Source: an uncultured virus (IMG/VR IMGVR_UViG_3300030707_000002)
Lineage: Duplodnaviria > Heunggongvirae > Uroviricota > Caudoviricetes
Virus record (IMG/VR): IMGVR_UViG_3300030707_000002
Reading direction: 5' to 3' (one strand)
Length of the DNA: 64,000 nucleotides
A program made the position numbers and the translations under genes. This document shows positions 29,895 to 54,449 of the stretch, in pieces. The notes below the pieces were generated by a model. That model did no database searches and was not told where the DNA came from. It saw only the letters and a list, made by a program, of their open reading frames with translations. Each line of letters begins with the position of its first letter. Positions within the stretch are counted from its first letter, which is position 1.

Positions 29895-31397
29895 TCAGAG
29901 CACGGCTGCCGGCGCCGTTCCTGACCCCGGCGCGAGCGCGCTCAAGGCCGCGTTGAGCGCCGCCTCGGTCTCGCGCGTGTACTTGCCGCTGGTGTCGATC
30001 TGCGTGTCGGCGCTCGCCGCGTTCCACGCCTGCGCGAAGTTCTTCACGGACCGCGTCGCGTACTGCGGTGCCCCCGTGCGCCGCAAGGATCCGAGAAGAT
30101 CGAGCGCCATCGCCCGGAGCACATCGTCGTCCGAGTTGCCGACTCCGAGCATTCCGACGCACGGTCGCACCGTGACGAGGTTGCTGATAGGCCCGCCGAT
30201 CGGCATCGCTCGCTCGAGATTGAGCAGGTACAGGCCCCCGTCGGCGCCGCGAATCGCAACCGGGCCGCCACCGGATTGGCTGAGGGTGGCCTGCGCCGCT
30301 GCTCGGAGCTGCGCTGGGAAACTGATCGGATCTCCCCAGCTCGCGCACGCGACCTCGCTTGGTGCCACGACGATATAGGGCCACCACGGACCGCCCCAGC
30401 CTCGCCCTCCGCCCCAGCCGCGGAAGGGTCGACCGCCGCCGTGCCAGCCCCCTCGTCCTCCACCACGACCTCCGCCCCCGTGACCGCCCCCACCGTGACC
30501 GCCGTGATCGAGGTCGCCGACGCCCGCGGTCGTTCCGGCGGGCTGCGGGTAGGGTCCGTATCCACTGGTCGGTGATGTGGGCATGGGTGCCTCGGAGGGT
30601 GTCGCTGTTTGCGATTTCTGGAGATTCAAACTGTCCAGCGATGGGGGGGTGCGCGTTTCGACATGGGGGACACCACTGGTGTTGGTGCCAGGTAGGCGGG
30701 ATTCAATTCTTTTGGCAGCCGCTCCGGCGCCAAATAAATTCAGCCACCCGACCAAGATGACGTTTCGGATGGGGATGATCGACCCCTCCAAGACGGCCTG
30801 AAACGCGTGGACCCAGTGCGGTCCAATCTCGGTCCTGTCCTTGAACCCGTCCGTGCGCGATGACCACAACGTCTTCGTCCCTTGGACGACGACGAGATTC
30901 CCGTCGTCCTGGAGCACGAGTCGGGCACCGGGGTGACCGCTCGTGCTCGTAGACCACAACGCTCTCAATTTTTTCCCGGCCAGTACCTGTCTCGACGAGA
31001 GCTTGTTGCCTGGGGCCACGTCGTCCGTGGCGTACGCGGGGTCCTCGTAGACGACGAAGTTTCCGTCCGGCTGCATCGTGGCGCGCGTCGCAAACCCCTT
31101 CCAGAGGGTGTACGCCGACCAGATTGGCTTGATGTTGCTCGGGTTGCGTATGTCGTAAAGGACCGGGTTCGAATCCGCCGCCTGAACGATGAAAACGGCC
31201 GTCCTCGACGGGTTGGCCAGCGGTTGTCCGATCGTCAGCGATTGGCCGGAGTCGAGCGTTCCGCCGAGGACAGGGGATACGTCCGGGGGCGCGCCGAGCC
31301 GACCCGGATCGGGGTCCCACCACTCGCACTGGCCTGGAGGGCAGACGCGCTCGCCCATGCCGAACGCGATGGGGCGGCCATGCCTGGCGATGTTCAT
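29895..31397 (-). CDS. putative virion protein with bulb-type (GNA) lectin domain and C-terminal peptidoglycan-binding-like helices
   Basis: MQPDGNFVVY and LQDDGNLVVV (QxDxNxVxY); N-terminal HGRPIAFGMG; VKNFAQAWN...SGKYTRETEAAL; ATGA-coupled. Confidence 0.75.
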   Translation of the reverse strand: MNIARHGRPIAFGMGERVCPPGQCEWWDPDPGRLGAPPDVSPVLGGTLDSGQSLTIGQPLANPSRTAVFIVQAADSNPVLYDIRNPSNIKPIWSAYTLWKGFATRATMQPDGNFVVYEDPAYATDDVAPGNKLSSRQVLAGKKLRALWSTSTSGHPGARLVLQDDGNLVVVQGTKTLWSSRTDGFKDRTEIGPHWVHAFQAVLEGSIIPIRNVILVGWLNLFGAGAAAKRIESRLPGTNTSGVPHVETRTPPSLDSLNLQKSQTATPSEAPMPTSPTSGYGPYPQPAGTTAGVGDLDHGGHGGGGHGGGGRGGGRGGWHGGGRPFRGWGGGRGWGGPWWPYIVVAPSEVACASWGDPISFPAQLRAAAQATLSQSGGGPVAIRGADGGLYLLNLERAMPIGGPISNLVTVRPCVGMLGVGNSDDDVLRAMALDLLGSLRRTGAPQYATRSVKNFAQAWNAASADTQIDTSGKYTRETEAALNAALSALAPGSGTAPAAVL

Positions 31398-31801
31398 TGC
31401 AGCCCCCATCCAGGAACCGATCGGCCGCTCCGTCGAATCGCGCCGCCAACGCCGAAGAGACTGCCGCTCCCGCCGCCGAAGAGGCTGCTGATCTCCGAGG
31501 CGGTGGTGGCGACGTTCGAGGCGAGTTTGACAGCGTTCGAGGCGGTGTTGACCACGTTGGGGGCGGGCGCCGGGGCAGGCGCTGCGGTCACCGGCTTGGG
31601 TGTCGGCGCCGGCGCCGGCGCCGGTGCGGCAGTCGCAGGGTGGGGTGCCGGTGCGGTCGCTGCGGGTGCCGGTGCGGGAGGTAGCAATCCCGCAGGCGCA
31701 GGAGACGAGCTGCCTGTGGGTCGGGTGGCCATCCAGTAGATCCCCCCTCCGACCGCAGCGATTCCCAGCACGGCCACCGCAATGACGGCACCCTCGCTCA
31801 T
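31394..31801 (-). CDS. small membrane protein with Pro/Ala linker
   Basis: N-terminal TM AVIAVAVLGIAAVGGGIYW; ATGA coupling on both sides. Confidence 0.65.
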   Translation of the reverse strand: MSEGAVIAVAVLGIAAVGGGIYWMATRPTGSSSPAPAGLLPPAPAPAATAPAPHPATAAPAPAPAPTPKPVTAAPAPAPAPNVVNTASNAVKLASNVATTASEISSLFGGGSGSLFGVGGAIRRSGRSVPGWGLQ

Positions 31802-33192
31802 GGCGACGTTCCTGCCGCCGGCGAGGACTTCTTTTTCTTTCCGCCGTTCGCCGAGATCGCTGCGACCGTCCCCCCGACCACCGCCACCACCGCGACGCCG
31901 ATGCCGACCTTCGCGAGGGTGGATAGACCGCCCGAGGGGGCTGTCGTTGTGGGCGACTGAGAACCGTCCGCCGGAGCGGAACCGTCCGTCGGAGCGGGAG
32001 AACCATCGGACGAAGCGGGCGAACCGTCCGACGGAGTGGTGGAATCGTCCGGTTGGGGCGTGTCCATCACGGTCTGATGCGCTGCCCACCACGCGGGCTG
32101 AAATCCCCACTCGCGTCTCCATCGACGGGCCCCGAACCACACGGGTCGAGCGCCCCACTCGGGCCGCCATTGGGTGGCGCCGAACCCTGCGGGCCGGGTG
32201 CCCCACTCGGGCCGCCACGCGTGCGCGAGGACCGCTTCGTGGGCGGCGGCGCGGATGGCGGTGGAGACTACAGGGTGACGAGGGTGAGCAAACCGGGAGC
32301 CGGCGCGAAGCACGGAGGCTTCGGCGCCGAGCCGCGCGAGTCTGTGCACTTGAGCGGGGGGCGTTCCGGGGGGTGCGACGACGCGCGCGGCACCGGTCGC
32401 GGCGGCTTGGATCGAGCCCTGCACGGCGGGATGCGGCGCCTGCGGGCGCCCTTTGACGGCCGCCTGCGCCGCATTGTGGATCTGCGCCACGTTCGTGGGG
32501 GCTGGGGGAGCGACGTCGCCGACCCCGCTGAGGGTTTGGCCCGGATCGGGCTCCCATTGCCGCGGGCAGCATCCGCTGACGCCCACGTCGCGGTCGCCGG
32601 TGCCGAGGCGATCCGCGATCGAGGCGCGCGGGCCCGGATCCGGTCCCCACGGGCGAGGCGGACACACGTACGGAAGGGTTGGGCAAAAGTTCTCACCCAC
32701 GCCGAACGAGACGGGACGGCCGTTTAGGAAGACTGTGTCCATTGAATACTCCTTGGTGGGGTGCGGCGCAGATTCGTCGGGAAGGTCGGTGCAGAGAGGA
32801 TCTCCCGGCGCGCATGGGGTTGCGGGTTTCCCGTTGGACCCCACGCCGGCCACGGACGGTGATTCCTCCCCCCACCCGTCCGGTGGATCGGCGACGGGGA
32901 TCTTCTTGCCGGTCGCGTTGACCGTGGTCGGAACAAATACGCTGGTCCCCTTGTGAGGCGTCGAGGGCCAGTCGGGGTGGGCGCCGTACCAAGAGTGTGT
33001 TTGAATTTGTGCGATGACGGGATGACCGTCGACGACGTCGGTGATGATGGTCCCGAGCGGGTAGTGGAGCATGTCGATGCTCCATTTCGTGAGCGCGGCC
33101 GATCCGGGCCACGGCCAGGAAGCAACGGGGCCGGGGATGGGGGGCAGGGAGTCGCCGAACTTGTACGTTTTCTGCGGCTGTTTGGCGATCAT
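31798..33192 (-). CDS. multi-module low-complexity membrane protein (putative virion)
   Basis: internal NGRPVSFGVG motif; three WRxEWG repeats; DGS repeats; C-terminal TM followed by KKKK. Confidence 0.65.
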   Translation of the reverse strand: MIAKQPQKTYKFGDSLPPIPGPVASWPWPGSAALTKWSIDMLHYPLGTIITDVVDGHPVIAQIQTHSWYGAHPDWPSTPHKGTSVFVPTTVNATGKKIPVADPPDGWGEESPSVAGVGSNGKPATPCAPGDPLCTDLPDESAPHPTKEYSMDTVFLNGRPVSFGVGENFCPTLPYVCPPRPWGPDPGPRASIADRLGTGDRDVGVSGCCPRQWEPDPGQTLSGVGDVAPPAPTNVAQIHNAAQAAVKGRPQAPHPAVQGSIQAAATGAARVVAPPGTPPAQVHRLARLGAEASVLRAGSRFAHPRHPVVSTAIRAAAHEAVLAHAWRPEWGTRPAGFGATQWRPEWGARPVWFGARRWRREWGFQPAWWAAHQTVMDTPQPDDSTTPSDGSPASSDGSPAPTDGSAPADGSQSPTTTAPSGGLSTLAKVGIGVAVVAVVGGTVAAISANGGKKKKSSPAAGTSP

Positions 33193-33268: not shown

Positions 33269-33583
33269 TTATGAGCGATCCTCGGCGTTGTTGCCGAGGC
33301 CCCGTTGAAGCCACGCAGCCCAACCGAGGACAAACGCCTCGATCGCGAGTGAGCCAGCAACCGCGTTTCTGATTACGTGCTCGCGTTCGCCGGCGATGAG
33401 CAGTCCCGTTCCGACAAGCGCCGCACGGACGAGCGTGTGTCCGACGGCGATCGGCAACGCGCTGAGGTCGCCGCCGACCAGGGCAGCGGCACTCGAGCCG
33501 GACGGCAGCGCGGCAGGGCATTCGGGAGGCTGGCCAAGAGCGAAGCCGGCGACGGGTCGGCCACCGCGCGAGATGGTGTTCAT
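33269..33583 (-). CDS. small membrane protein
   Basis: N-terminal GGRPVAGFALG; two hydrophobic helices; ATGA-coupled. Confidence 0.65.
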   Translation of the reverse strand: MNTISRGGRPVAGFALGQPPECPAALPSGSSAAALVGGDLSALPIAVGHTLVRAALVGTGLLIAGEREHVIRNAVAGSLAIEAFVLGWAAWLQRGLGNNAEDRS

Positions 33584-34458
33584 GATCGAAAGACCTCTAC
33601 GGAATCGTTTGGCTTGAAGTGCCACGTCCCCTGGCTTTGAACTTGAACCTCAACGGATCGCGCTCCTTCAACGCGTCTCACCGAAAGGATACGGTAACGA
33701 CGAGATCCCTTCTCGCCTCGAACGAGATCGCCTGGCTTCAGATCTTTGGCGCTAACAGTTTTGCCTTCCCCTTCTCGGACCGCCGACAGGCGCTGCGGTG
33801 CGCGTCTCATCGTGGCGATCCAGTAGATCGATCCGCCGAGTGCGAGGATCCCCAACGCGGCAGCCGCCGCAACCGCCGGCCGCTGGAGCGTCTCGAGCAC
33901 ACTGCTCACAGGGGTCGTCGGGGCGATCGGCGGCTTGCTCGCGATCTCGGAGAGCACGGCCGCTCTCCACCGCGCGAACTCACTCGCGGTCGGGTGGATC
34001 CCGTCGCGGAGCTGCAGGTTGAGCGTGCGCGAGTCGAAGTACCGATCGCCTAGCACGGACTGGAGATGGGCCGGTGCTGCGCCGTCCTTCCCGCGAATCG
34101 ACGGCGGTCCCACCCAGAGGGTCGACGCACCGGCGGCCTCGATGGCTTTCACGATCGCGGTCGGGTCGGGCTTGCTGTCGTAGTCGTTCGAGCCGAGGAA
34201 GACGATCACAGTATCGCCTCTCGAAATGCCGAGCGTCGGCACGATGGCCGCGAACTCGGACGTGTGTGCCCCGACCTTGCAGTGGACGCGCGCGGGCGTG
34301 CCGTTGAGATCGATGGTTTTGGTGGTCAGGTTCGGGGCACCGGTGGCGCCGCATGCCTGCGAGTCGCCGATGACAAAGAGATGCGGCGTCACTTCATCAA
34401 GACCGAAGCCGACGGTTCGGTTTCCGGCGAACGAGATGGATTCTGCGAGGTGCATCAC
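33580..34458 (-). CDS. SGNH/GDSL hydrolase-like membrane protein
   Basis: IGDSQ, LGSND and DGIHP blocks; TM; C-terminal small beta domain (DLKPGDLV). Confidence 0.75.
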   Translation of the reverse strand: MMHLAESISFAGNRTVGFGLDEVTPHLFVIGDSQACGATGAPNLTTKTIDLNGTPARVHCKVGAHTSEFAAIVPTLGISRGDTVIVFLGSNDYDSKPDPTAIVKAIEAAGASTLWVGPPSIRGKDGAAPAHLQSVLGDRYFDSRTLNLQLRDGIHPTASEFARWRAAVLSEIASKPPIAPTTPVSSVLETLQRPAVAAAAALGILALGGSIYWIATMRRAPQRLSAVREGEGKTVSAKDLKPGDLVRGEKGSRRYRILSVRRVEGARSVEVQVQSQGTWHFKPNDSVEVFRS

Positions 34459-34465: not shown

Positions 34466-35263
34466 TTACGTCGCCGCCGCAGGTACGCGTTGCAGTGCCG
34501 GCACGCGTCGCGCGGGTCGGCTAGTCAGGGTGACCGCTCCCCAGGCCACGACTCCGGCAGCGGCCACGATCGCGATCCCCGTCAGGATCGGTCGCAGCTT
34601 GATCGGTCGACGGACGAGCGGGATCCCGGTCGCGACCCGTTCCTTCGTGCCGTCGAGCATGGCGTTGATTTTGCCGGTGATGTCCGCCTTCGTGATGTAG
34701 CCCTTGTGCGTGCTGTCGAATCCGGCGTTTTGCGTGTAGATGGCGCTTCCTGTCCGGCCCATCACTGCGTCGTCGGACGCTCCGATGAACGCGGGGTAGA
34801 GGACGGCCAGGTAAGCGTCCGAAAGGCTCTTCATCTTGCCCGCGTGGGGCGCGAAGTAGCGCTCGACCAGCTTCATCTGCTGGGGGAAGCTCATCGCTTC
34901 GAGCTGCCGGATCGCCTCTTCCGGCGTGGACGTGCCGAGGAGGTTCTGGGCCGTCTTTGGCATGAACTGAATGAGGCCCGTTGCTCCCGACCCGGCCGCG
35001 TTCTTCTGGGTCGGGGAGAACGTTCCGCCGGTCTCGAAGTTGATGATGGTGGCGAGCCAGTCCGGTTCAATGCCGATAGTGTTGGCCGTCTCGGTGATGG
35101 ACTGCAGTTCGCTTACGGAGAGCTTCTTGATGCCTGGGAAGGCGGGGAGCGTTTCTTCGCCACCTTTGCTGCCGCTCCACCAGTTCCCGAGGCCCGGGGG
35201 CGGGACGACGCAACTGATGAGCGTCCGCGGCGGGGCGACGTCTTCCCACGAGCTGACGTGCAT
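34466..35263 (-). CDS. lytic transglycosylase (SLT-like) with C-terminal TM anchor
   Basis: INFETGGTFSP..KN..GSGATGLIQFMPKTA; YxQNAGFD; C-terminal hydrophobic helix. Confidence 0.88.
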   Translation of the reverse strand: MHVSSWEDVAPPRTLISCVVPPPGLGNWWSGSKGGEETLPAFPGIKKLSVSELQSITETANTIGIEPDWLATIINFETGGTFSPTQKNAAGSGATGLIQFMPKTAQNLLGTSTPEEAIRQLEAMSFPQQMKLVERYFAPHAGKMKSLSDAYLAVLYPAFIGASDDAVMGRTGSAIYTQNAGFDSTHKGYITKADITGKINAMLDGTKERVATGIPLVRRPIKLRPILTGIAIVAAAGVVAWGAVTLTSRPARRVPALQRVPAAAT

Positions 35264-35277: not shown

Positions 35278-36276
35278 TCAGCCCCTCACGGGTCTGATTT
35301 CGACGCGCTTGTTCCAGCCGCGTCGGTCGGCTTGCTTCTCGTAGTGATCCTTGAGCCTCTCTGCTTCCGCTTGGGTGTTCGCGGGCGCGACCACTTCTGG
35401 ATGCGAAGACCCCTGGTTGAAGACGAGTACTTGGTACCCGATTACGCGTCGCGCCTCGCTGGCCGCAGGCAGTGCGGTTCGCGGCTTCTTCTTGCCGTAC
35501 GCCCCCGCGATCGCCGCCACGGTCCCACCGACCACCGCCGCTGCCGCGACGCCGATGCCGATCTTCATGGGCATGGGCAGGGTCGACAGAGCCGACAAGC
35601 AAAATACGGTGCCGGGGTACGGCGTCGGGAAGTCGGTCGCGTGCTGCCTTGTGACGGTCAGGAGCGCGCAGAGCGTGTCGCGGTCGAGCATCCCGTCGGT
35701 GCGCAGGCCCGGGTTCACGTTCGTGTTGAACCAGCCTTGGAAGCACGCGACCGCCGCGGGCTGCGCCTTGGTCGGGTCCGATGGCCAGGTTGCGCAGGGC
35801 TTGCTCCCGGCCTTGAGGATAAGCGCGTTGAGCTGCGTGAGGGTGGACAGCACCCACTGCGCCTCGGCGTCGGAGAGCTTGATTCCTGGTCCTGCGGCGG
35901 CTGCCGGTGCCTGCCCGAGCGTGCCGCTACGACGGACCGTCTCGCCGATGCCGCCAATGCCGGAGCTCATGAACCGGTTGCCGATGCAGAGCGAGTTCTG
36001 CGTCCACTGCGGCACGATGCGCCCTGCGTTGTCAGTGGCCTTATCGAGGACGTTGTCTTTCCACCAGCAGTCGGCCTTGCGAATGTCGCGGTCGGTCGGT
36101 CCTTGGATGGGGACATCGTCGATCCAATCGCCGTAGGTGCCGTCGTCGTGCATGATCTGAGCGGCTTGCCGGGGCGTTGGCGATCCCGGTTCGAGGACGC
36201 AGGCCTTGGGGACCAGGATCCGCGGAAACTCGCTGCATCCGCCTCCGCACCCGCCGACTCCGGTTGTCTTCGTCAT
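35278..36276 (-). CDS. membrane protein with peptidoglycan-binding-like motif
   Basis: FQGWFN...LRTDGMLDRDTLCAL; TM KIGIGVAAAAVVGGTVAAI followed by KKK; TGATG-coupled. Confidence 0.65.
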   Translation of the reverse strand: MTKTTGVGGCGGGCSEFPRILVPKACVLEPGSPTPRQAAQIMHDDGTYGDWIDDVPIQGPTDRDIRKADCWWKDNVLDKATDNAGRIVPQWTQNSLCIGNRFMSSGIGGIGETVRRSGTLGQAPAAAAGPGIKLSDAEAQWVLSTLTQLNALILKAGSKPCATWPSDPTKAQPAAVACFQGWFNTNVNPGLRTDGMLDRDTLCALLTVTRQHATDFPTPYPGTVFCLSALSTLPMPMKIGIGVAAAAVVGGTVAAIAGAYGKKKPRTALPAASEARRVIGYQVLVFNQGSSHPEVVAPANTQAEAERLKDHYEKQADRRGWNKRVEIRPVRG

Positions 36277-37262
36277 CAGGGCACGTCCTCTCCCAGATTC
36301 TCGTCGAAGACGAGCGACCCCGCAATCCGGCCGTACTGCGCGGTCGTGTTGAAGGCGGTCAGAAACTGGTCTTCGGACCCTGTGCCGAGCGCCGTAAACT
36401 GATTGGCCGACAGGTCGCTCGCGGCCGGGTTGGTCGACGGGTCGTTCTGCCGGACGCTCGCGAAGAACGCGATGTCGCACGGCAGCGGCACCGGGATGTC
36501 GAGCATCTGTTCGAGGTAGCCGGTACGCCAGCGGTACCGCATGTCGTGCATGTTGCCGAGGCTCACGCTCCCAAGCGGCTTGCCCCACGGCCGGCCGGCG
36601 TTCGGGGGCTTGTACGCGGTCGGCGCGAACTGCGGGCCTGCGATCGTTTCGTAGAGCATGCACGGCCCGTAGGCGTCGCGGAACTTCAGACTGTCCGCGT
36701 TCTGGACGTTGCGAGTCAGCATCCAGGTCTTCGGGATCATCACGATGTGCCAGGAGATGTTCCCGTCGGGCGGATGCCAGAGTGGACTCATGATCTCCTT
36801 ACGGAAGGTCCCGACATCCGAAACGGTTGCGGTGAGCTCCGCGTACATCCGGATGCCTGTCAGTCGCACCCCCTGCTCGCCGGAATTGAACTGCTCGCGA
36901 GCGAGCAAGAAGAGGTACCGGTACTGCGACGGGGGTGCTCCGGTCGGAACGAGCGTGGCCGTTGGCGTGGAGGGGACGAGGACGCCGGTACCGACGGGCG
37001 ATCCCCACGGGTCGCTGCCGAGCAGCGAGACAAACGGATCGATCGTCGCGGGGACGATCTCGTGGCGACCGGACCAGAGGCGCGTGCGGACTCCATAGCC
37101 GACCCCGTTCGGGTCGCGCTGCAGGTCGAGTAGCCTCACCTCCAAGTCGCCGCGCCGCCCCCTCGACGGCGGCACGATGGCTTTGGGGTCTGTCCCGTGC
37201 TGACCGACCCCGATGGGTTCGGCCTGCAGATCGGTTAGCTCCGCCGCCTGGTCGTCGCGCAT
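36276..37262 (-). CDS. beta-rich putative virion structural protein
   Basis: 328 aa, alternating hydrophobic strands; adjacent to capsid candidates. Confidence 0.6.
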   Translation of the reverse strand: MRDDQAAELTDLQAEPIGVGQHGTDPKAIVPPSRGRRGDLEVRLLDLQRDPNGVGYGVRTRLWSGRHEIVPATIDPFVSLLGSDPWGSPVGTGVLVPSTPTATLVPTGAPPSQYRYLFLLAREQFNSGEQGVRLTGIRMYAELTATVSDVGTFRKEIMSPLWHPPDGNISWHIVMIPKTWMLTRNVQNADSLKFRDAYGPCMLYETIAGPQFAPTAYKPPNAGRPWGKPLGSVSLGNMHDMRYRWRTGYLEQMLDIPVPLPCDIAFFASVRQNDPSTNPAASDLSANQFTALGTGSEDQFLTAFNTTAQYGRIAGSLVFDENLGEDVP

Positions 37263-37274: not shown

Positions 37275-37871
37275 TTACGGTTTGAGCAGCTCGGCCAGAT
37301 CGGGGGACTCGATGCCGAGCTTTCTCAGCCGGCAGCGTGCGTCGGTATCGCTCATGTCGTCCATCACCTTGTCGAGGAATTGGAACCCGTTGAACAAAAT
37401 GTGTACGTCGTACGGTACGCTCACCGGCGTCTGGAAAAGGACCGCGGCGATTTTGATGTTACTTTGTTTGAAAATCACCCAGCCAGACGGCCACGTGAGC
37501 TTGATCACGTCAAACAGGTTTGCGAGCTCGACGGGTCCGTCGCTGATGGCGTACTTCGGCCCCCCGTAAACGTCGAGCTTGATGCCGACGCCGGTCTGGG
37601 CCTTGAGGTACGCGAAGTACAGGCTCTGGAACGGGCTCCCAGGGAACGAGTTCTGCTGGAACAGCGTAAACGACACGTTGTCGATGACGGTGTCCGAGAC
37701 GAGGTTGTTGTCGAAGCTCGTGATGATCGCGGGAGCATCGACTACGCTCGACGTGAACTGGATCGGGAGGTCCGCGACGAACGGCACCCGAGGAACGCCC
37801 GCGACCATCCCATACGCGATCCGTGGGGCATAGAGGGCAAGGTTGCGGATGTCGTGGTCTCGCGGCTGCAT
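37275..37871 (-). CDS. putative single jelly-roll structural protein (small capsid/penton-like)
   Basis: 198 aa; strand-like pattern throughout ending YDVHILFNGFQF; GGAGG RBS. Confidence 0.5.
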   Translation of the reverse strand: MQPRDHDIRNLALYAPRIAYGMVAGVPRVPFVADLPIQFTSSVVDAPAIITSFDNNLVSDTVIDNVSFTLFQQNSFPGSPFQSLYFAYLKAQTGVGIKLDVYGGPKYAISDGPVELANLFDVIKLTWPSGWVIFKQSNIKIAAVLFQTPVSVPYDVHILFNGFQFLDKVMDDMSDTDARCRLRKLGIESPDLAELLKP

Positions 37872-37906
37872 GAGCTTCCTCCGGAATCAACGTACCTCAA
37901 AATTGA

Positions 37907-37968: not shown

Positions 37969-39285
37969 TCAGGCCGCGTGGGCTCGCATCATGCTCGGGT
38001 ACTTTTCCGAGCAGTACGACTTCCATCCGCCAGGCATCTCCCAGCCCTTGATCTTGATGCCGAGCTTGAGGATGCCGCCCTTGAAGATTTGGCGGCTGTC
38101 GTTGACGACCTGCGACGCGTAAAGCGCCGTCCCGTCGAGTGTCTGCTCCATCATCGGCAGGGCCAGCGTAGGCAGGAGAGCGAGCACGGCGGCCGAGCTG
38201 AGGCTGGTGCTGCCTCCAGAGGTGACGGCGGCCAGGTTGACGTCCGGAAGGACGTTGATCCCGAACGGCTCGTTGTCGATCGTGAGCGCCTCGATCATCT
38301 GCGCCTGGTGCACGGCGTCCTGCGCGATGAAGATCATCCCGATGGGGATTCCGCGCTCGAGAAAGCACGGGCTCTCGACCGGTCGGTACATCTGTCCGCG
38401 GCAGCCGTACCCCTGCCACCGCAGGCCTCCCCAGGTGACCGGCGCGAGGTCGAAGTCGCGCGTCGGGTGGAAGATGCCGATGTTGACGCCGGTCGATGCT
38501 CCCGACGGGGTGAAGCTGCCGACCCGCCGGAAGTTGACCGGCAGGAAGATCGTGTCGGAACCCTGCGCGCGGTACTGCGCGTTGACGAGCGCGACGTAGT
38601 CGATGACCGGTAGCTCGCTCGTGCCGCTCGCTTCGGCGTCAGCGAACGATCCGAAGTACGAGATGTCGGCCGCAAGCTCGTTGAGCACGAGCTCACGCTG
38701 CGACGTCTTCCACTGGAACTGGTAGGCGTTGATGAAGTTCCAGCCTGCGCGCCAGGTTGCCGCGCCGAACTCGAAAACCGCGGGGGTCACCTGATCGGGA
38801 CCAGTCACGTAGGACCCGAAGGCGCCGTTTGCGTAGTCGTTGGCCGTCCAGACGTCCGGGCTCGGAGGGGAGCCGGTGGCGAGCTGCTGGGTCGGGGCGA
38901 TGAACGCGTTGCCGATCGTGGAGAACGACATCGGCTCGCAGAAGACGTGCACGCCGATGCCCTGGGCGAGGATATCCGTCTGCAGGATACCGTTGATGAG
39001 GAACGTGCTGTCGATGCTCGCGACGCCGGGCACCGCGGACGACCCGCTGAGCGGGTTGACCGTGTCGCCGAACGTCGTCTGCGCCTGCTCCGCGGTCAGC
39101 GGCAAGGGGATCGTCCAGACCACCTCCTCGACGACGGGCACGTTGCCGAACCCGCATCGCAGGCACTTCTCTGCGGCCTTCTCGTCGCCGGGCGGAGCGC
39201 CCAGGCCGAACGGCACGCGCATCACCTTCTCGCGGCTCTCGCCGCCGTACTTGATCGACTTCTTCTGCAGCAGGTTCCTTGCCAT
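37969..39285 (-). CDS. candidate major capsid protein (jelly-roll type suspected)
   Basis: 438 aa, beta-rich, very high GC3; follows the core-like protein and precedes a hairpin; no HK97 features recognised. Confidence 0.5.
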   Translation of the reverse strand: MARNLLQKKSIKYGGESREKVMRVPFGLGAPPGDEKAAEKCLRCGFGNVPVVEEVVWTIPLPLTAEQAQTTFGDTVNPLSGSSAVPGVASIDSTFLINGILQTDILAQGIGVHVFCEPMSFSTIGNAFIAPTQQLATGSPPSPDVWTANDYANGAFGSYVTGPDQVTPAVFEFGAATWRAGWNFINAYQFQWKTSQRELVLNELAADISYFGSFADAEASGTSELPVIDYVALVNAQYRAQGSDTIFLPVNFRRVGSFTPSGASTGVNIGIFHPTRDFDLAPVTWGGLRWQGYGCRGQMYRPVESPCFLERGIPIGMIFIAQDAVHQAQMIEALTIDNEPFGINVLPDVNLAAVTSGGSTSLSSAAVLALLPTLALPMMEQTLDGTALYASQVVNDSRQIFKGGILKLGIKIKGWEMPGGWKSYCSEKYPSMMRAHAA

Positions 39286-39380: not shown

Positions 39381-42300
39381 TTACTCGGCCGCGTTCCAGA
39401 GCAGGTCTTGCTCGACTTCGTCCCCGATGAAGCCGAGGTACGGGCTGTCGTCCAGGCAACCGCACTCCGACTGCAGCGGTTGCGGTCCCGGATGCGGCAG
39501 CTTGGGGGGGCCGACGGGGAGGTTCCTGGGTGGGTTCCCGACGCCCGAGGTGCCTGCGTGCGGTGCGGCGGCGTGGGCCGCCGCCGCCGCCGGTGCGGCT
39601 GCCACGACGGCCGCTTGAACGGCAGGGTGGTCAGCCACGGGACCGTGTGCGTCCGCGGCGGCTTGCGCCCCTTCCTTGGCGATCTGATGCACGACCGGAG
39701 TGGGCGTGCCGGGCGGAGCGGCGGATGCGGCGGTCGCCGCTCCGGTTGCTGCAGCCTGGACGGCAGCGGCCACGGCAGGCTTCTTGGCGTCCGCATGCGG
39801 AGCAGCCGCCTCTTTTGCGGCGTGCGTGGCGGCGGCCTCCACGGCCGGCGTGGCTTTGCCGTGTGTGCGATCCCAGTCTTGGCGTTCTTGCGTGTGCCAT
39901 TCCGCTTCACCGCGTGTCCAGCTCGGGGGCGGTGGAGACGGCACGAACTCGATGACGGACAGAGGTGGTGCCGGTACGGGCGGAGTGGGCACCGCTGCGG
40001 TGGTCACCGGAACCCCCGTCTGCGCGTGCAGTTGCTGGATGTACGGACTCATGTTCTCGGCGCAGTAGCGTGCGAGCTCACTCCGGATGAGCGGCATCGC
40101 GCGTTCGATCGCCCGCGTGCAGTTGAACGGTTCGGCCGCTGCGTACGCGGTCGTGGTGACGGCGTTCTCGAGCGGTATGCCCGGGATCGAAGCTCCTGCA
40201 GCCTGCACGGCGTTCGAAAACACTTCGCCGAGTCCAGGCTGCCCTGGATTGCCGCCCGTTGCGGGCCCCCCGGCGCCGATCCCCATCACCTGCTGAACGG
40301 TCGGGTACCGGTCGTAGGCGATCTCTCGTTCGTAATTCGGGTGCCATTCGTGGCGCTCGCGCAAGTGCGCGGGCGTCGACGCCGGCAGATCGGGCGGTGG
40401 GGGAGCGTACGGCAATCCGGCGGACGCCCGCTTGCCATGCCACTCGCGCCACTCGCTCTCGGGCGCGTCGTGTTCGGGCGCCGGCAACCCTTCGGCTGCC
40501 CGCGCGCCGGTCCACTCTTCGTGCTCGCGCGGATACCTGGCGTGCGCGTGCATTCGGACCACGTGCGGATGCACGTGCCGCGCGCACTCGATGAGGAGCT
40601 CGCGACGCAGGTGCGGCAGCGCGCGCTGCAACGCCTGCGTGAGGTCGTGCGGTTCGGCCACCGCGTGCATCGCCGCGTTGACGGCGTGCGCCGGGTGCAC
40701 GCCGGTCTTCGCCGCGATGGTGTGCGCCATGTCCTGCACCGCGTCGCCGACGCCGCGCAGGCCCCAGCGGTGCCAATGACCCCAGCGGGGCGGCCATGCC
40801 GACTGAACGGGGGGAGCGGGTTGATCGTCGTCGTCGACAATCATCTCCGTCGGACCCGGATCGTTGTACCCCGGAACGCCAGGGATGGCGGGCGGCGTCC
40901 ACGAAGAGGGCGTGACCCACTCGCGGTGGCGGCCGAAGCGGTCGGCGAGCGCGAATGGGCCGGCGTCCTTTCCGACGCCGGTTTGCTCGGATCCGTCCGA
41001 GAGCGTGCCGGCCTTGCTGGCGGCGCCGCCGCTCGAGACAGCAGCGGTTCCGCTCTTCATGTTGAGGGCCGCCGAGACCTCGGCAGGGTACAGGCGCGCG
41101 ATCCAGCTCTTCTGCAGCGCCGGTGTGCTCGTGTCCTTGCCGATGAGCAGCGGCATCAGCACGCTCGACCAGAGCGTCGCGGCGAACTTGATTCCGGCTC
41201 CGACCCCCATCCCCTCGACCGACGATCGAATTGCAGCCTTCTTGATGAAGAGCGAGCCGATGAGCGGTCCGAAGGTCAGGACTCCTAGGCTGCCGTAGCG
41301 CCACAGGTCGGGCGCCGACGCGACGTTGAGCGCATTGGCGAGCGTACCGACCCCGTCCGAAGTGAACTTGTTCGCCGGCTTGTTCGCGGCCGATGGATCG
41401 TAGCCCGCGAGGAACCGATCGATGGCGTCCGCGGCCAGGAAGGCGGCGGCGGCGGTCCCCACTTCGAGGGCCATGTTGCCCGCCGTGCGGGCCATACTGC
41501 CGAAGCTCGGCGCGCGGACCTTGTGCGCGCGGTAGGATCGAACGACTTTCGTCTCGCGGGCGCGCCGATGCTTCGGACGGCGACGGGCCTGGACGACCTT
41601 CGTCTCGCGAGCATGACGACGCGGACGCCGACGCGCCTGAACGGTCGTCGTCTCTCGGGTGTACTTGCGCGGGCGCCGACGGGCCTGGACGACTTTCGTC
41701 TCACGAGCGCGCCGATGCTTCGGACGGCGACGGGCCTGCACGGTCATCGGCTCGTGGACACGACGACGCGGGCGCCGACGGGCCTGAACGGTCGTCGTCT
41801 CGCGAGCGTGCCGACGCGGGCGACGCCGCGACTCGGCGGCCTTCCTGGTCGTCTTGCCGCCCTTGCGCGTTCGCCACCCCTTCTTCGCAGCCTTGCTGTG
41901 GCCTGCGCTGTCGCCACGCCACGCCGACACCTTGCGGTGGTGGTGCGGACGACGTTTCGCCATCACGTAGCTCGACGGCCGCTTGCGGTGGGTCGATTTG
42001 CGATGGGTGGGCTTGCGGTGGGTGGGCTTGCGGTGCTTCGGACGGCGGCGCGCCTCGGCAACCACGGGAGTCTCCCGCATGCGGCGCGGACGGCGCCGCG
42101 ACTCGGTCGCGGTTCGTCTCACTTCTCGCGCATGGCGCGGACGCCGGCGCGCGGTGACGACGCTCGTTTTGGACTTCGGCGCCGCTCGGCGCTTCGGCGC
42201 GGTTCGGCGCTTCGGAGAGGCTCGATGGGCCGCCTTGGGCTTGGCCGCGGACTTGCGAGCAGGACGACGGGTCGTCTTCGTCTTCTTTTTCATGGTCTCC

Positions 42301-42767
42301 TCACGAGCGACTACTGCGCGAATGCCCTTGCCGAACGGAACCGTTCGTTTGACTGCGAACCCCTTCGGGTCTTGCTGCCGCAGGCGAACGTACCGGTCGG
42401 TAACGTCCACCTTGCCGGATTTGTAGCCGTGACTTTTGGCCCACTGCTTCGCTTTCTCGACGGTCCAACCGGCGCTGCGATCGAAAAGCAGCGACTGCGC
42501 CTGCATGGCCTTGCGCTTGGCTTCAACGAACGAGTCCGGATCCGGAGGAGGAGGGGGAGGGGGAGAGTAGGGCGGCGGAACGTACGTGCTTGGGATGACC
42601 GTGCCGATGCGGACCTCACGGCGGCCGGGCGGCGCCGGGCGGAGCGATTGCCGATAGGGAGGCCGGGAAGGTCGACGTCCTGCGCCAAGCCGTTGACCGC
42701 GTTCGTGCGCGGCGGAGAGCTCGGCGAGACGGGAGTGGTACACGCCCATGTCTTCAACGTTTTTCAA
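39381..42767 (-). CDS. large polyprotein-like core/membrane protein with protamine-like Arg-rich repeats
   Basis: (A)RET..VQARRRP repeats; central hydrophobic helices; repeated G-[VL]-G motifs; strong internal RBS GAGGAG before in-frame ATG 42293; true start uncertain. Confidence 0.65.
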   Translation of the reverse strand: MKNVEDMGVYHSRLAELSAAHERGQRLGAGRRPSRPPYRQSLRPAPPGRREVRIGTVIPSTYVPPPYSPPPPPPPDPDSFVEAKRKAMQAQSLLFDRSAGWTVEKAKQWAKSHGYKSGKVDVTDRYVRLRQQDPKGFAVKRTVPFGKGIRAVVAREETMKKKTKTTRRPARKSAAKPKAAHRASPKRRTAPKRRAAPKSKTSVVTARRRPRHAREVRRTATESRRRPRRMRETPVVAEARRRPKHRKPTHRKPTHRKSTHRKRPSSYVMAKRRPHHHRKVSAWRGDSAGHSKAAKKGWRTRKGGKTTRKAAESRRRPRRHARETTTVQARRRPRRRVHEPMTVQARRRPKHRRARETKVVQARRRPRKYTRETTTVQARRRPRRHARETKVVQARRRPKHRRARETKVVRSYRAHKVRAPSFGSMARTAGNMALEVGTAAAAFLAADAIDRFLAGYDPSAANKPANKFTSDGVGTLANALNVASAPDLWRYGSLGVLTFGPLIGSLFIKKAAIRSSVEGMGVGAGIKFAATLWSSVLMPLLIGKDTSTPALQKSWIARLYPAEVSAALNMKSGTAAVSSGGAASKAGTLSDGSEQTGVGKDAGPFALADRFGRHREWVTPSSWTPPAIPGVPGYNDPGPTEMIVDDDDQPAPPVQSAWPPRWGHWHRWGLRGVGDAVQDMAHTIAAKTGVHPAHAVNAAMHAVAEPHDLTQALQRALPHLRRELLIECARHVHPHVVRMHAHARYPREHEEWTGARAAEGLPAPEHDAPESEWREWHGKRASAGLPYAPPPPDLPASTPAHLRERHEWHPNYEREIAYDRYPTVQQVMGIGAGGPATGGNPGQPGLGEVFSNAVQAAGASIPGIPLENAVTTTAYAAAEPFNCTRAIERAMPLIRSELARYCAENMSPYIQQLHAQTGVPVTTAAVPTPPVPAPPLSVIEFVPSPPPPSWTRGEAEWHTQERQDWDRTHGKATPAVEAAATHAAKEAAAPHADAKKPAVAAAVQAAATGAATAASAAPPGTPTPVVHQIAKEGAQAAADAHGPVADHPAVQAAVVAAAPAAAAAHAAAPHAGTSGVGNPPRNLPVGPPKLPHPGPQPLQSECGCLDDSPYLGFIGDEVEQDLLWNAAE

Positions 42768-43217: not shown

Positions 43218-43892
43218 TTACCGGATCGACGGGTAGAGCAGATCGAGCACGCTCGCCAGCCCACGGACGCTTCCGCTGACACCGACCTCGCTGCCGCCCG
43301 ACATCCCGACGAAGTCTCCTTCGCCGCGGTTCTTCGCTTCCGCGCCCGGCTCGAACCACCACTCGCGCTTGTGCGGCGCGACGCGACCGACCGGATGCTT
43401 CGTAGTGCCGTCCATGCGGACCCAGTCGTCCTGCTCGTCCTGGAAGGCCATGAAGACGTGCGTCGGCACGTCGTGCGGGTGCTTGTGCGACGAGCCGATG
43501 ATCATCGCGGGGATGCCGATCGACATCATCGCGGCGGCGAGCGAGATGCTTGCACCGTCGCAGTCCGTGCCGATGAAGCAAAGACCTCCCTCGTCCAAGC
43601 AGAGCGTCTGTTCCGGAGTTTCCATGAACTCGCCAAGAACTGGGTCAGCAACATACGGCACCTTCTTGCGGAACGCGTCGAGAACTGCTTGCCCCTTCTG
43701 CCGGCGCGACCCCGTCGATACGCCCACCTCGGCGAGTTTCTGCGTTGTCCACGCGCGCAGGCGCGGAGACATACGACTCTTCCACGCGCGCTCGGCAACC
43801 TCCTTGAGTGAGAGAAGCGACCCATCACGACCGGCTGGGTGCGAACGTACGTCCGTCTTCACACCTTCTACGGGCTTGTCGATGATGATCAT
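43218..43892 (-). CDS. transglutaminase-like cysteine protease
   Basis: YVADP...TPEQTL; DCD (Cys), THVF (His), WVRMDGT (Asp). Confidence 0.85.
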   Translation of the reverse strand: MIIIDKPVEGVKTDVRSHPAGRDGSLLSLKEVAERAWKSRMSPRLRAWTTQKLAEVGVSTGSRRQKGQAVLDAFRKKVPYVADPVLGEFMETPEQTLCLDEGGLCFIGTDCDGASISLAAAMMSIGIPAMIIGSSHKHPHDVPTHVFMAFQDEQDDWVRMDGTTKHPVGRVAPHKREWWFEPGAEAKNRGEGDFVGMSGGSEVGVSGSVRGLASVLDLLYPSIR

Positions 43893-45088
43893 TGGCAAGC
43901 TCCAAGAGTGGCCATAAACTCCGGCCCTACCGTTGTAACGGCTTCGGTCAACGACGCCATAAACTCCGGCCCTACCGTTGTAACGGCTTCGGTCAACGAC
44001 CCCGCGCGCAAGCCGCGCGCCAAAACGTTCCGCGCAGCGTTCTCATCTCGATGGAGAATGAGTCCGCATTGCGGGCATCGGTGCTCACGTTGCGACAAGT
44101 CCTTCGGGACTGGTTCACCGCAGCCTGAGCAGTCGATACTGCTACGCCGCGGATCCGTCGCCACCACCCACTTGCCGGCACCCTCCGCCTTGCAGTTGAG
44201 TGCTTTGATGGCGACGCCCCACGCGGCGTCACGAATGGATTTTGATAAATGTCCGCGCATCATGCGGGCGATTTCTAGATTCTCGTGCGCTACGAGGTCG
44301 AACCGGTTGAAGATCGCACACGCGAACTTGCGGGCAAAATCCAGACGCTGATTGCGAATGTGCTCGTAGGTACGAGCAACCAGTGTACGAGCTTGACGTC
44401 GACTGTTCGATCCACGTTGCTTGCGAGCGAGCAACTGCTGGCGCCGCGCTAGCGTCTTCTCCGACGCGCGGAAGAAGCGCGGATTTTCGACACGCTCACC
44501 GTTAGAGAGCGTAGCGAACGCTTCCAGGCCGACATCAATGCCGATAGCCGATCGGACCGCGATTTTCGTTGGCGCTTCGCCGAGGTCGCAGACGAACGAT
44601 ACGTACCAGCCGCGCGTACTGCTGCGACCCACCGTGACCTGCTTCATCCGGCCACGCATCTCGCGGTACTGGTGAAACTTCACCAGGCCTAGTTTTGGTA
44701 AGCGTACATGGTCGCCTTCAGCGCGCACCCCGAAAAGCGGAGGCAGAGTAAATGAGTCATAACGGTCGCGCGACCGAAAGCGCGGGTATCCTTTTTTTTC
44801 ACCGCGCTTTACGTGTCGGAAGAACGCCAGAAACGCTCGGTCAAGACGTCGTAGTGCACTGCGCTGAACCAAGAGTGGGATCATCTCCCATTCTGGATCC
44901 GTGGCCCGAAGTTCAGTTAGTTCCTTCTGCTGATCGAAGCGACTGATTCGCACATGCTGTTTGCTCCACGCATCTCGTCGTTCTTGCAGAGCAGCGTTGT
45001 AAAGTGTGCAACTCGCCGTAAGCCATGCTTCAAGCGTCGCTTCCTGCGCTTTCGTTGGACGAAGTGGGTAACGAAATGCCCGGATCAT
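43889..45088 (-). CDS. tnpB: TnpB RNA-guided endonuclease (IS200/IS605/IS607 type)
   Basis: AFRYPLRPT N-terminus; RuvC GIDVG, HENL and RDENAA intact; CSGC/CPQC zinc finger. Confidence 0.92.
   Translation of the reverse strand: MIRAFRYPLRPTKAQEATLEAWLTASCTLYNAALQERRDAWSKQHVRISRFDQQKELTELRATDPEWEMIPLLVQRSALRRLDRAFLAFFRHVKRGEKKGYPRFRSRDRYDSFTLPPLFGVRAEGDHVRLPKLGLVKFHQYREMRGRMKQVTVGRSSTRGWYVSFVCDLGEAPTKIAVRSAIGIDVGLEAFATLSNGERVENPRFFRASEKTLARRQQLLARKQRGSNSRRQARTLVARTYEHIRNQRLDFARKFACAIFNRFDLVAHENLEIARMMRGHLSKSIRDAAWGVAIKALNCKAEGAGKWVVATDPRRSSIDCSGCGEPVPKDLSQREHRCPQCGLILHRDENAARNVLARGLRAGSLTEAVTTVGPEFMASLTEAVTTVGPEFMATLGACQ
43911..44000. repeat. perfect 45 bp tandem duplication at the 3' end of tnpB
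   Basis: GCCATAAACTCCGGCCCTACCGTTGTAACGGCTTCGGTCAACGAC twice. Confidence 0.95.
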
Positions 45089-51209: not shown

Positions 51210-51342
51210 CCCTCGGACCTACGCCGGGAACTCTGCGGTAGTGCGTGTGACCTCGTCAATCGATCGACGAGCGTCCACGCACGATTCTTCGCATGGTGTA
51301 GACACCGTGATCGCATCGTGGAAACATGAACTCCAGAAACCG

Positions 51343-51543: not shown

Positions 51544-51591
51544 TTTTCCGGCATTTGCGCTAGAATTATGCAGCCGCTACACTAGACGACC

Positions 51592-52397: not shown

Positions 52398-52417
52398 CCC
52401 GTGGTACGTTGAACGGC

Positions 52418-52807
52418 GTGCAAGACGGCATCCACCGCAACGGGCGGCTGGTCATCGGGTTCGGCCTCGGATCGATGCCGCTGCCCGAGTGGGTCGCGAC
52501 GCGCAACAAGCTCCAGGACATGGATCGCCTCATCGCTTCTGGGCGAGGGGACGCGCTGGTCGACGGGGGCGGCTGCACCGAACCGGGCGGCGGGATCGTG
52601 CCCACGCAGCGCACCGCGCTCGAGATGGCGAATCTCTTGCGCGGACGGATGAGCACTGGAGTGGGGCACCTCGATGCGCCGGCGACGGCTGCGCCTCCCC
52701 ACCCGTCGCCGTGGAAGTACGCCCTGGTCATGAGCCTCGTCTCTACGGCGACCGGATGGGCCCTCGAAGAAATTGCTCGGCGGACGTTTCGGAGGAAGCG
52801 AAAATGA
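52418..52807 (+). CDS. motif-bearing small membrane protein
   Basis: leaderless TACGTT-N7-GTG; NGRLVIGFGLG; C-terminal hydrophobic helix and RRKRK. Confidence 0.65.
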   Translation: MQDGIHRNGRLVIGFGLGSMPLPEWVATRNKLQDMDRLIASGRGDALVDGGGCTEPGGGIVPTQRTALEMANLLRGRMSTGVGHLDAPATAAPPHPSPWKYALVMSLVSTATGWALEEIARRTFRRKRK

Positions 52808-53520: not shown

Positions 53521-53540
53521 AGCGGCGTACGCTGGTCCGC

Positions 53541-54113
53541 ATGCTCCAGTTCAACGGCCGACCGGTGGCCTGGTTCGGCGTGGGCGCGCCCGATGTCATC
53601 GGTCCGGGCATCGCAGCGCTGCAGGCTGCGTTCGCGCAGTACCGCAGCCCGAGAATCACCAATCCGAACAAAGCAGTCGCCGACCTGCAGGCGGCGGGAA
53701 ACGCGGCGGTCAGTGTCGTGGGTCCCGCCATCGACGCGCTGTCCGGCGGCAGCCCCGACGTCATGAAGAGGACGCAGCTCGTGTGGCAGAAGAACGGAGA
53801 GCTCGCGAACATCACGGGGGCTACCGGTTCGGACGTGGAGATGGCGAAGGGGATCGTCCACGACATGATCGACGCCTACCAGCAGGCAGCGAGCCTTGCG
53901 GCGTCTCTCGCATCAAAGACGGTGCCGAGAGGATCCGCGCCGCCTCCGAGACTGCCGGGAGGGTCTCCCCCTGCATCCGATGCGCCCCAGCAGGGCGGCT
54001 TTCTCGATTGGTTCGCGGAGAACACGACCACCGTCCTGCTTGTGAGCGGTGCCGTCGTCGTCGTTGGAGGCGTGGCGCTGGCGGCGGCCGCCCGCACCCG
54101 CGCGACTGCGTAG
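53541..54113 (+). CDS. motif-bearing helical protein with C-terminal TM
   Basis: LQFNGRPVAWFGVG; leaderless TACGCT-N7-ATG. Confidence 0.7.
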   Translation: MLQFNGRPVAWFGVGAPDVIGPGIAALQAAFAQYRSPRITNPNKAVADLQAAGNAAVSVVGPAIDALSGGSPDVMKRTQLVWQKNGELANITGATGSDVEMAKGIVHDMIDAYQQAASLAASLASKTVPRGSAPPPRLPGGSPPASDAPQQGGFLDWFAENTTTVLLVSGAVVVVGGVALAAAARTRATA

Positions 54114-54146
54114 ACGCGCTCGCCGAACCGTCGTACGCTCGAGGGC

Positions 54147-54449
54147 ATGGAACGCATCCAGTTCGGCGGCCGACCGGCTCCCGGGTTCGGCGTGGGCCTC
54201 GCGCCGCAGAGCACTTTCGCCAAACCTGCGGCGGAATCGAGCATCCTCTCCGTGCCCGCTGGCAAGGTGGGGGCCTTCGTCGGCGGCGCCGCGATGTCCG
54301 CCGCCGCCGCCGCCTTTGCGACGACGTTCTTCGGGGAGGGGACCAACCTCGGCGGCGTCCGCGGCGTCGCCACGCGCCTGCAGCGCAACTGGAAAATCCT
54401 CGCTGCCACCGCGGTCGCGGGCGGCGTCGTCGGCGCCGTCGTAAAGTAG
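54147..54449 (+). CDS. motif-bearing small membrane protein
   Basis: IQFGGRPAPGFGVG; leaderless TACGCT-N7-ATG; two hydrophobic helices. Confidence 0.7.
   Translation: MERIQFGGRPAPGFGVGLAPQSTFAKPAAESSILSVPAGKVGAFVGGAAMSAAAAAFATTFFGEGTNLGGVRGVATRLQRNWKILAATAVAGGVVGAVVK

Follow-up and report, generated by a model that had tools for sequence, protein, structure and literature searches.

The stretch of DNA discussed here, 64,000 nucleotides from an uncultured large soil virus (IMG/VR record IMGVR_UViG_3300030707_000002) that we call the window, carries between positions 29,895 and 54,449 eight open reading frames (ORFs) that start with the same peptide of about 18 residues, the tag. Its consensus at the start of these ORFs is h-x-[FR]-x-G-R-P-V-x-(G)-F-G-[LV]-G. 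The tags form two clusters on opposite strands, namely one at 31.3-34.5 kb on the minus strand, with starts at 31397, 32742, 33583 and 34455/34458, and one at 52.4-54.4 kb on the plus strand, with starts at 52418, 52804, 53541 and 54147. A first-pass annotation of the window had reported the motif on at least eight unrelated ORFs at two loci on opposite strands; all eight of its sites were recovered, and the related records G004 and G005 likewise have two tag clusters on opposite strands. The carriers in the window are the following.

29895..31397, minus strand: t1, 500 aa, tag MNIARHGRPIAFGMGE (26.3 bits with profile 2, described below), no membrane segment
31798..33192, minus strand: 464-aa ORF, in which a 150-aa N-domain precedes an internal Met (32742) and its tag MDTVFLNGRPVSFGVGE; behind these come a body, a C-terminal membrane segment and a tail of KKKK
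33269..33583, minus strand: t3, 104 aa, two hydrophobic segments, tag MNTISRGGRPVAGFALGQ, the best-scoring one (41.2 bits)
33580..34458, minus strand: t4, 291-292 aa (GTG at 34458 or ATG at 34455), tag ESISFAGNRTVGFGLDE, membrane segment at residues 194-212 and then a 78-aa tail
52418..52807, plus strand: t5, 129 aa, GTG start, tag QDGIHRNGRLVIGFGLGS (32.2 bits), no membrane segment
52804..53520, plus strand: t6, 238 aa, tag MITESIRFRGRAVAGFLGA (26.0 bits), C-terminal membrane segment
53541..54113, plus strand: t7, 190 aa, tag MLQFNGRPVAWFGVGAPD (33.9 bits), C-terminal membrane segment
54147..54449, plus strand: t8, 100 aa, tag MERIQFGGRPAPGFGVGL (32.9 bits), Ala/Gly-rich C-terminal stretch that falls under the hydropathy threshold

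Once the first 25 residues are removed, the bodies of the eight carriers are mutually unrelated, the best of the 28 pairs reaching a BLASTP E of 0.63. In t1, the tag is followed by a weak bulb-lectin-like region (Pfam B_lectin E 0.0069, below the cut-off; phrog_19296 E 2.2e-14), a Gly-rich stretch and a C-terminal domain, while t4 contains GDS, GSND and DGIHP blocks that, read by eye, look SGNH-hydrolase-like, with no SGNH match in the Pfam scan. Homologues of t3 are present in six of the related loci introduced below (L003-L006, L023 and L025). Membrane segments were scored by a hydropathy threshold, and a segment was taken to be near the end if it lay within 40 residues of the C-terminus. 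By this measure, five of the eight window carriers have a membrane segment and four have it near the C-terminus, whereas over all loci, where some ORFs are cut by locus ends, a hydrophobic segment lies near the C-terminus in 25 of 40 tagged ORFs. The first-pass statement that most carriers end in a transmembrane helix has to be qualified by these counts.

How far does the tag stand above chance? A regular expression fitted post hoc to the eight tags finds exactly those eight in the six frames of the 64 kb, and nothing more. A profile built from the eight window tags (profile 1) was run on 8,653 stop-to-stop ORFs (1,067,412 aa) from the window and from 34 searched loci, L001-L034, which comprise 31 IMG/VR virus contigs and three contigs of metagenome-assembled genomes from Binatia and Polyangiaceae; L001 and L002 are the same virus as the window and were excluded from counts, so that L003-L034 are the independent loci. 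Profile 1 gave 34 matches of at least 10 bits, with a best reversed-sequence score of 9.8 bits, and 21 such matches came from the 7,348 ORFs belonging to the independent loci, for which the shuffled-set maximum was 9.1. The second-round profile (profile 2), made from 29 sequences, gave 44 matches of at least 9.7 bits, with a reversed control maximum of 6.7, and ten residue shuffles yielded 0, 0, 0, 0, 0, 0, 1, 2, 0 and 0 matches at this level. For the position of the tag, the 40 hits outside L001 and L002 were compared, in an 11-codon window at the profile start, with a background of 20,000 random ORF positions. An in-frame ATG lies near the profile start in 29 of the 40 tags as opposed to 10.5% of random positions (binomial p 2.6e-20), and an ATG, GTG or TTG does so in 34 of the 40 as opposed to 32.7%. 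Just such a search for N-terminal enrichment over shuffled sequence had been proposed in the first-pass annotation, and the enrichment found, together with the nearly empty controls, upholds its observation. The tag is a real peptide signal, far above chance, at the N-terminus of unrelated proteins.

The conserved residues of the tag are encoded by varied synonymous codons (GGC, GGA or GGG for Gly; CGA, CGT, CGC or CGG for Arg), which argues for selection on the peptide itself, and a DNA- or RNA-level element was rejected as the cause of the conservation because these codons differ. What is more, the tag persists between viruses with 44-80% identity in their capsid proteins, whereas its carriers vary; the 117.7 kb of G001, an IMG/VR record of the same DNA, contain exactly the same eight tags.

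As to the starts, the nearest in-frame Met codon lies 5-10 codons ahead of the regular-expression match in seven of the eight cases, the eighth match (52442) having none and following the GTG start at 52418. Shine-Dalgarno-like sequences lie upstream of 32742 (AAGGAG), 34455 and 52804; since the AAGGAG stands 7 nt before Met 32742, both a long (464-aa) and a short tagged (314-aa) product are possible. The starts at 52418, 53541 and 54147 are each preceded, at a distance of exactly 5 nt, by the end of one and the same 10-mer, SGTACGYTSR (plus-strand copies at 52403-52412, 53526-53535 and 54132-54141), which is found again on the minus strand at 37887-37896, 15 nt before the gene g9. The window holds 11 copies, compared with 1.76 expected, and none of 100 shuffles reached 11, the pattern tested having been defined with the sites already in view; the 10-mer may serve as a common promoter or translation signal. 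In 26 relatives of t7, the database gene models start at the tag or just ahead of it, and the annotated tag starts are credible.

The tag is also a separable module, gained and lost among relatives. Of the 27 members of the t7 family, 23 carry it; in the other four, the protein starts with, or close to, the first residues that are conserved in the body. In the 464-aa ORF and its homologue in L003, a domain of 150 aa is fused in frame ahead of the tag, and the homologues in L004 and L006 begin at the tag.

Copies in g7 and the capsid candidate, and a candidate enzyme

Three genes of a conserved minus-strand operon that lies within 29.9-54.5 kb bear directly on what the tag might do.

35278..36276, minus strand: g7, core protein of 332 aa, in which a degenerate internal tag IGNRFMSSGIGGIGE (35905-35985) separates the N-domain from the C-domain, with a membrane segment and a basic tail after the latter
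37969..39285, minus strand: g10, capsid candidate of 438 aa with a jelly-roll-like model, whose RVPFGLGAPPG at residues 23-33 (39187-39219) corresponds to the second half of the tag
43218..43898, minus strand: g12, 226 aa, transglutaminase-fold, with the triad Cys113, His147 and Asp163; candidate reader or protease of the tag

In the g7 family, the tag stands between a Cys-rich N-domain and the C-domain. It is clear in 18 of 27 ORFs, as judged by a post-hoc regular expression, and takes the form G-V-G-E-x-I-S-F-G-G-x-G-x-x-G-F-A-L-x-x-x-G-D-P, with a small G-V-G or G-I-G ahead of it. Thirteen of these 18 tags have no ATG, GTG or TTG in the preceding eight codons. Consequently, the description of the tag as N-terminal in the first-pass annotation, which agrees with the eight window ORFs and with the positional enrichment, has to be widened to include truly internal copies. 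In addition, the body of the 464-aa ORF family contains two tag-like repeats, G-x-R-P-x-x-F-G-A, found in the window at 32176-32202 and 32128-32154.

The second half of the tag, R-P-V-x-G-F-G-L-G-x-x-P, has a counterpart in the capsid candidate, R-x-V-x-FGLG-x-x-P, which is the most conserved N-terminal feature of g10 and its superfamily; the RVPFGLGA that had been noticed near the start of the protein on first inspection does occupy residues 23-30. When the second half of the tag profile is aligned with capsid residues of about 21-33, it matches in 12 of 22 family members with 7.7-12.3 bits (reversed sequences, at most 3.7), the window g10 itself scoring 7.7 bits. In an alignment of 81 capsid sequences with identities as low as about 21%, no more than 18 columns are kept in at least 90% of the sequences, and G27 and G29 are two of them. 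L030 was left out of the capsid alignments, its match containing two stops. Distant capsid relatives carry [RK]-x-h-G-h-G-x-x-P near the N-terminus, at times in two to three copies (P0136, P0144 and P0160), a pattern typical of linear recognition or cut sites. Among 1.84 billion representatives, a profile search picked out 221 capsid relatives, counted as clusters at 50% identity.

Is g10 a capsid protein? A first model from a shallow alignment of 22 sequences was poor, with a predicted local distance difference test score (pLDDT) of 46.9, and was replaced by one from 81 diverse sequences of the 221 relatives, a beta-sandwich with pLDDT 87.1 and a predicted template modelling score of 0.85. 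A Foldseek search of the PDB and BFVD with this model gave no match at E of 0.001 or below, the weak rows being mostly jelly-roll coat proteins, and the capsid profile, searched against the sequences of solved structures, had no match below E 1. In a comparison with 48,161 chains by VIA-align, the peak Z was 6.0, with non-viral beta-sandwiches at the same level as capsid proteins; among the latter, the values were 5.8 for the PBCV-1 capsid chain, 5.8 for SPV1, 5.5 for PRD1 P3, 5.5 for HHIV-2, 5.4 for HCIV-1 and 4.7 for P23-77 VP16. The neighbours of g10 in an Atlas feature search are without exception clusters of viral coat proteins, with scores of 0.83-0.87 that fall short of the trusted level. 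Altogether, g10 is a candidate for a jelly-roll-like capsid protein. A complex prediction for g10 residues 35-438 together with an alignment of the 30-residue tag returned a score of 0.00, which is no answer and counts neither way.

The putative enzyme g12 lies two genes from the capsid gene in nearly all relatives and is matched in 26 of the 34 loci, at 35-99% identity. There are 366 database homologues, many of them labelled as transglutaminase-like cysteine protease, with PF01841 on many of the 120 matches listed, and every one of 16 aligned sequences has Cys113, His147 and Asp163. A search of g12 against the sequences of solved structures gave nothing below E 1. A literature search for the transglutaminase-like enzyme in these viruses, run without the peptide motif itself and over journals outside subscription, found no publication joining the two and no account of the tag. 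By analogy with known enzymes discussed below, we infer that g12 may be the protease that reads the tag. A subtilase-like ORF at 11131-13296 was also considered for this role and set aside, as it was found in none of five related records, an empty answer that proves little.

Several further features of g12 and its relatives deserve mention in their own right. Residues 192-199, near the C-terminus, form an invariant G-x-G-D-F-V-G-M that is loosely like the F-G-h-G of the tag and could be a self-processing or self-blocking piece, and the last nine residues are a conserved L-D-L-L-Y-P-x-I-R. The homologue P0051 has 364 aa and is labelled as a Hint-domain protein, which suggests an intein insertion. 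Finally, G001 encodes a second transglutaminase-core protein of 330 aa (L048:15006-15995; Pfam E 7e-10), far from the structural module and close to a second NikA-like gene.

Neighbouring genes and related records

The members of the operon recur in as many as 33 of the 34 loci and include a NikA-like protein, RadC, several proteins without family matches, g12, an arginine-repeat protein of 1128 aa, g10, g9, g8 and g7; Pfam and PHROG give names to few of them. Beyond the genes already described, the following belong to the structural module.

34466..35263, minus strand: lytic transglycosylase of the same operon, untagged, with a C-terminal membrane segment (Pfam SLT E 1.7e-4; phrog_196, baseplate hub, E 2.5e-36)
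36276..37262, minus strand: g8, conserved core protein of 328 aa, untagged
37275..37871, minus strand: g9, very conserved core protein of 198 aa, not tagged
39381..42767, minus strand: conserved protein of 1128 aa with tandem arginine-rich repeats (..VQARRRPR..) and hydrophobic segments, directly upstream of the capsid gene

Residues 26-32 of g9 read G-V-P-R-V-P-F and thus have R-V-P-F in common with the arm of the capsid candidate. The 1128-aa protein has its arginine-rich units (..VQARRRPR/KH..) in about nine tandem copies, with the hydrophobic segments behind them, and may be a membrane-tied DNA-condensing protein.

Between g12 and the next core gene lies an IS605-type OrfB/TnpB gene (43889-45088, minus strand; Pfam OrfB_IS605 E 8.5e-23). 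To the left of the module, at 21264-27802, are a DNA methylase, a DDE transposase and a tyrosine recombinase, and the element may accordingly integrate or carry insertion sequences. Genes of the toxin-antitoxin type surround the tagged clusters (28917-29851, 51771-52397 and 54459-55274), namely HepT with a nucleotidyltransferase, Fic, Phd/YafQ and a HicB-like ORF, and HigB is also present in G001.

The G+C content of the window is about 65%, so that long spurious ORFs are common in it; window genes were called by third-position G+C, and the ORF calling is crude. One end of G001, which has 117,665 bp, is 99.994% identical to window bases 9958-64000, and since the window runs 9,957 bases past that end, the whole element comes to no less than about 127 kb. 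The same DNA as in the window is contained in two shorter IMG/VR records (53.6 and 55.0 kb; 67-69% complete by CheckV). A Pfam scan of G001 bases of about 1-64,300 found a PD-(D/E)XK nuclease, a UvrD-type helicase, an exonuclease and sugar-modifying enzymes besides the second transglutaminase-like protein. No terminase, portal, HK97 capsid or prohead-protease family was found in Pfam and PHROG scans of the window and G001 ORFs, and there was no recognisable packaging ATPase of the FtsK/HerA type among the Pfam hits for the crudely called ORFs of the window and of G001 bases 1-64 kb, a search that would miss divergent forms. The relative G004 (locus L004; 38.9 kb, 49% complete) is classed by IMG/VR as having inverted terminal repeats, which, if real, hint at a linear genome.

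What might read the tag

The best explanation of these observations, which we put a little short of an even chance, is that the tag is a virion-assembly leader and/or a processing site, read by one shared viral partner. Namely, it would be a short linear signal of a virus-encoded particle-building system, in which one partner recognises it both on the accessory proteins, many of them membrane-anchored, and on the N-terminal arm of the capsid protein. In a first step, the 18-residue leader, h-x-F-x-G-R-P-V-x-G-F-G-h-G-x-x-P, would recruit its protein to the assembling particle, and we propose that it does so because it copies the capsid arm, R-x-V-x-F-G-L-G-x-x-P. In a second step, g12, by way of its Cys-His-Asp triad, would trim or separate proteins at the small-residue h-G-h-G site, with the leaders being removed and the two-domain g7 and the fused form of the 464-aa protein being cut. 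The carriers would then be particle proteins, some bond at the tag would be cut, and the particle would presumably contain a membrane. A shared reader is suggested by the length and conservation of the tag, by its copy on the capsid arm and by its presence on unrelated bodies, whereas processing is suggested by the internal and repeated copies and by the constant enzyme with its intact triad. The first-pass annotation had taken the motif for a dedicated assembly, targeting or cleavage tag for loading cargo onto a membrane-containing particle. Of this, the tag itself stands as real and conserved, echoed on the capsid candidate and accompanied by a cysteine-protease-like enzyme in the same module, while the membrane particle and the cargo role are conjectural.

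That said, a number of observations weigh against this explanation. The motif h-G-h-G, considered as a mark of all core proteins, was rejected, being conserved in none of seven further families (g8, g9, g14, g15, g18, g20 and g21), and the sole conserved G-x-G-x-G of the 1128-aa protein lies in a hydrophobic stretch, unlike the leader. The tags of distant relatives end in G-F-G-[DE] while their capsids keep F-G-L-G, which means that tag and capsid motif do not change strictly together; this and the lack of the motif in the seven core families speak against a simple protease code in particular. The tag is missing in four of 27 relatives of t7, and its conserved part, at least 15 residues, is longer than a protease usually needs. 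In the g10 model, the capsid motif is predicted to be ordered (block-mean pLDDT 85-91 over residues 21-50), which is more in keeping with a packed structural arm than with an exposed cut site. As for the two partners, the window g12 reaches E 3.3e-4 and 21.4 bits with Pfam Transglut_core, where the cut-off is 23, and enzymes of the transglutaminase fold do other chemistry too, while the identity of g10 is based on weak fold matches (Z of 6.0 or less), for which reason we call it a jelly-roll-like capsid candidate and not a proven capsid.

The order predicted for the capsid arm and the length of the tag would also suit docking without any cleavage, in which an uncut, hairpin-like arm plugs into the capsid-arm site and holds accessory proteins, membrane-anchored and soluble alike, beneath the shell, leaving g12 with another job. 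Minor proteins sit under the shell in internal-membrane phages, and the conservation of the tag over some 18 residues, the match of its second half to the capsid arm and the membrane segment at the far end of 25 of the 40 carriers would all agree with such a tether; the tag-like repeats in the body of the 464-aa family could raise avidity. Copies between domains or behind a fused domain are nevertheless ill-suited to a free arm, although a looped-out hairpin could still bind, distant capsids have their two or three copies of the short motif in a seemingly flexible N-terminal region, and the constant enzyme is left unexplained. We therefore consider docking alone unlikely, if still a serious contender. 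The same membrane segments, with the basic tails that accompany them on most carriers, and the place of the tag at the very N-terminus, where export signals lie, could instead point to a host or viral insertion or export machine that reads the tag and sets the N-terminal side of tail-anchored proteins. Yet no hydrophobic core follows the tag, none of the window carriers having a hydrophobic segment before residue 47, and there is one Arg and not a twin-Arg, so that the features of Sec, Tat, lipoprotein and pilin signals are lacking; a type IV pilin-like G↓F site in particular was rejected, as there is no hydrophobic helix after the tag and the residue before Phe is not always Gly. Moreover, the 500-aa and 129-aa carriers have no membrane segment, the same motif occurs on the capsid candidate and within g7, and the tag is specific to one virus family, all of which makes an export signal improbable. 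Would the tag need a reader at all? It could be a mobile N-terminal module that spreads by recombination among neighbours and is kept for self-folding or expression, as the clustering of the carriers, their variation among relatives and the gain and loss of the module would allow. However, the peptide is conserved on unlike bodies, with synonymous change, over capsid identities of 44-80%, and its likeness to the capsid N-terminus would have to be a coincidence; we find this just as hard to credit as an export signal.

If the tag is indeed an address or cut-site label, it offers a handle on particle building in an uncultured and apparently widespread virus family, as judged from the 221 capsid clusters and the 366 homologues of the enzyme. 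The tag alone would then list the accessory proteins of the particle from sequence, and it could be used to load foreign proteins, as is the capsid targeting sequence (CTS) of phage T4. Maturation at Gly-rich sites would, furthermore, have arisen in bacterial jelly-roll viruses with a protease fold unlike that of adenoviruses. Taken to its full extent, which we regard as possible but doubtful, this would amount to a lineage of large jelly-roll viruses (about 80-120 kb) that infect soil bacteria and have so far gone undescribed, in which a 'zip code' leader that copies the capsid arm loads changeable enzymes and membrane proteins and is then processed by a cysteine protease of the transglutaminase fold, as a bacterial-virus counterpart, built from unrelated parts, of the logic of pVI and the adenovirus protease (AVP).

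Comparison with known systems

In phage T4, the CTS is removed by the head protease. A passage of PMC3012670 describes it as the only conserved part of otherwise diverse internal proteins, which it brings into the particle. The tag resembles it in being a short N-terminal peptide common to unrelated proteins, here putative particle proteins. The motif is a different one, however, and it is found also between domains and in common with the capsid protein; T4, moreover, has a head of the HK97 fold, a scaffold core and the serine protease gp21, in contrast to the jelly-roll-like capsid candidate and the transglutaminase-fold enzyme here.

Adenoviruses are jelly-roll capsid viruses in which many particle proteins have Gly-based cut sites, and in this they are similar to the system proposed here. 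In the sections of PMC4246237 that deal with it, AVP has the consensus (M/I/L)-X-G-X↓G or (M/I/L)-X-G-G↓X, with sites such as IVGL↓G and QRGF↓G, and the N-terminal peptide of pVI is proposed to lie in a hexon cavity. The [VI]-x-G-F-G of the tags resembles this consensus in its sequence outline, and six of the eight window tags contain [VIA]-x-[GW]-F-G, which has the same outline as an AVP site. The host here is bacterial and the tag is far longer than an AVP site; what is more, no adenain-type (C5) protease was matched by Pfam among the window and G001 ORFs, the conserved enzyme being of the Transglut_core type. Together, the T4 CTS and the pair of AVP and pVI provide a precedent for a shared leader that is read during assembly.

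For the enzyme, the closest parallel is LapG, a transglutaminase-like cysteine proteinase with a C-H-D triad, which, according to an excerpt of PMC3032545, cuts 108 N-terminal residues off LapA and leaves the new end AGPSAAG. The likeness lies in the transglutaminase-like fold and C-H-D triad of g12, on the one hand, and in the removal by LapG of an N-terminal piece next to small residues, on the other. LapG thus sets a precedent for a transglutaminase fold acting as a protease on an N-terminal piece. It is a periplasmic cellular enzyme with one adhesin as its substrate, however, and g12 matches Transglut_core and not a model of the bacterial transglutaminase-like cysteine proteinases (BTLCP).

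Small membrane-anchored proteins and a membrane-anchored transglycosylase are encoded in the structural modules of tailless jelly-roll viruses, as in the case of P7/P16 of PRD1 and P3/P6 of PM2. The module described here has the same two ingredients, its membrane being only presumed, whereas we know of no common leader on the minor membrane proteins of PRD1 and PM2. The double-glycine leaders of bacteriocins, which are N-terminal, comprise 15-30 residues, end in small residues and are read by papain-like C39 peptidase domains, differ from the tag in that they have another consensus, are coupled to export and are non-viral. The principle is thus a known one from T4 and adenovirus; what is new is the motif itself, along with its copies between domains, the fold of the candidate enzyme and the lineage of the virus.

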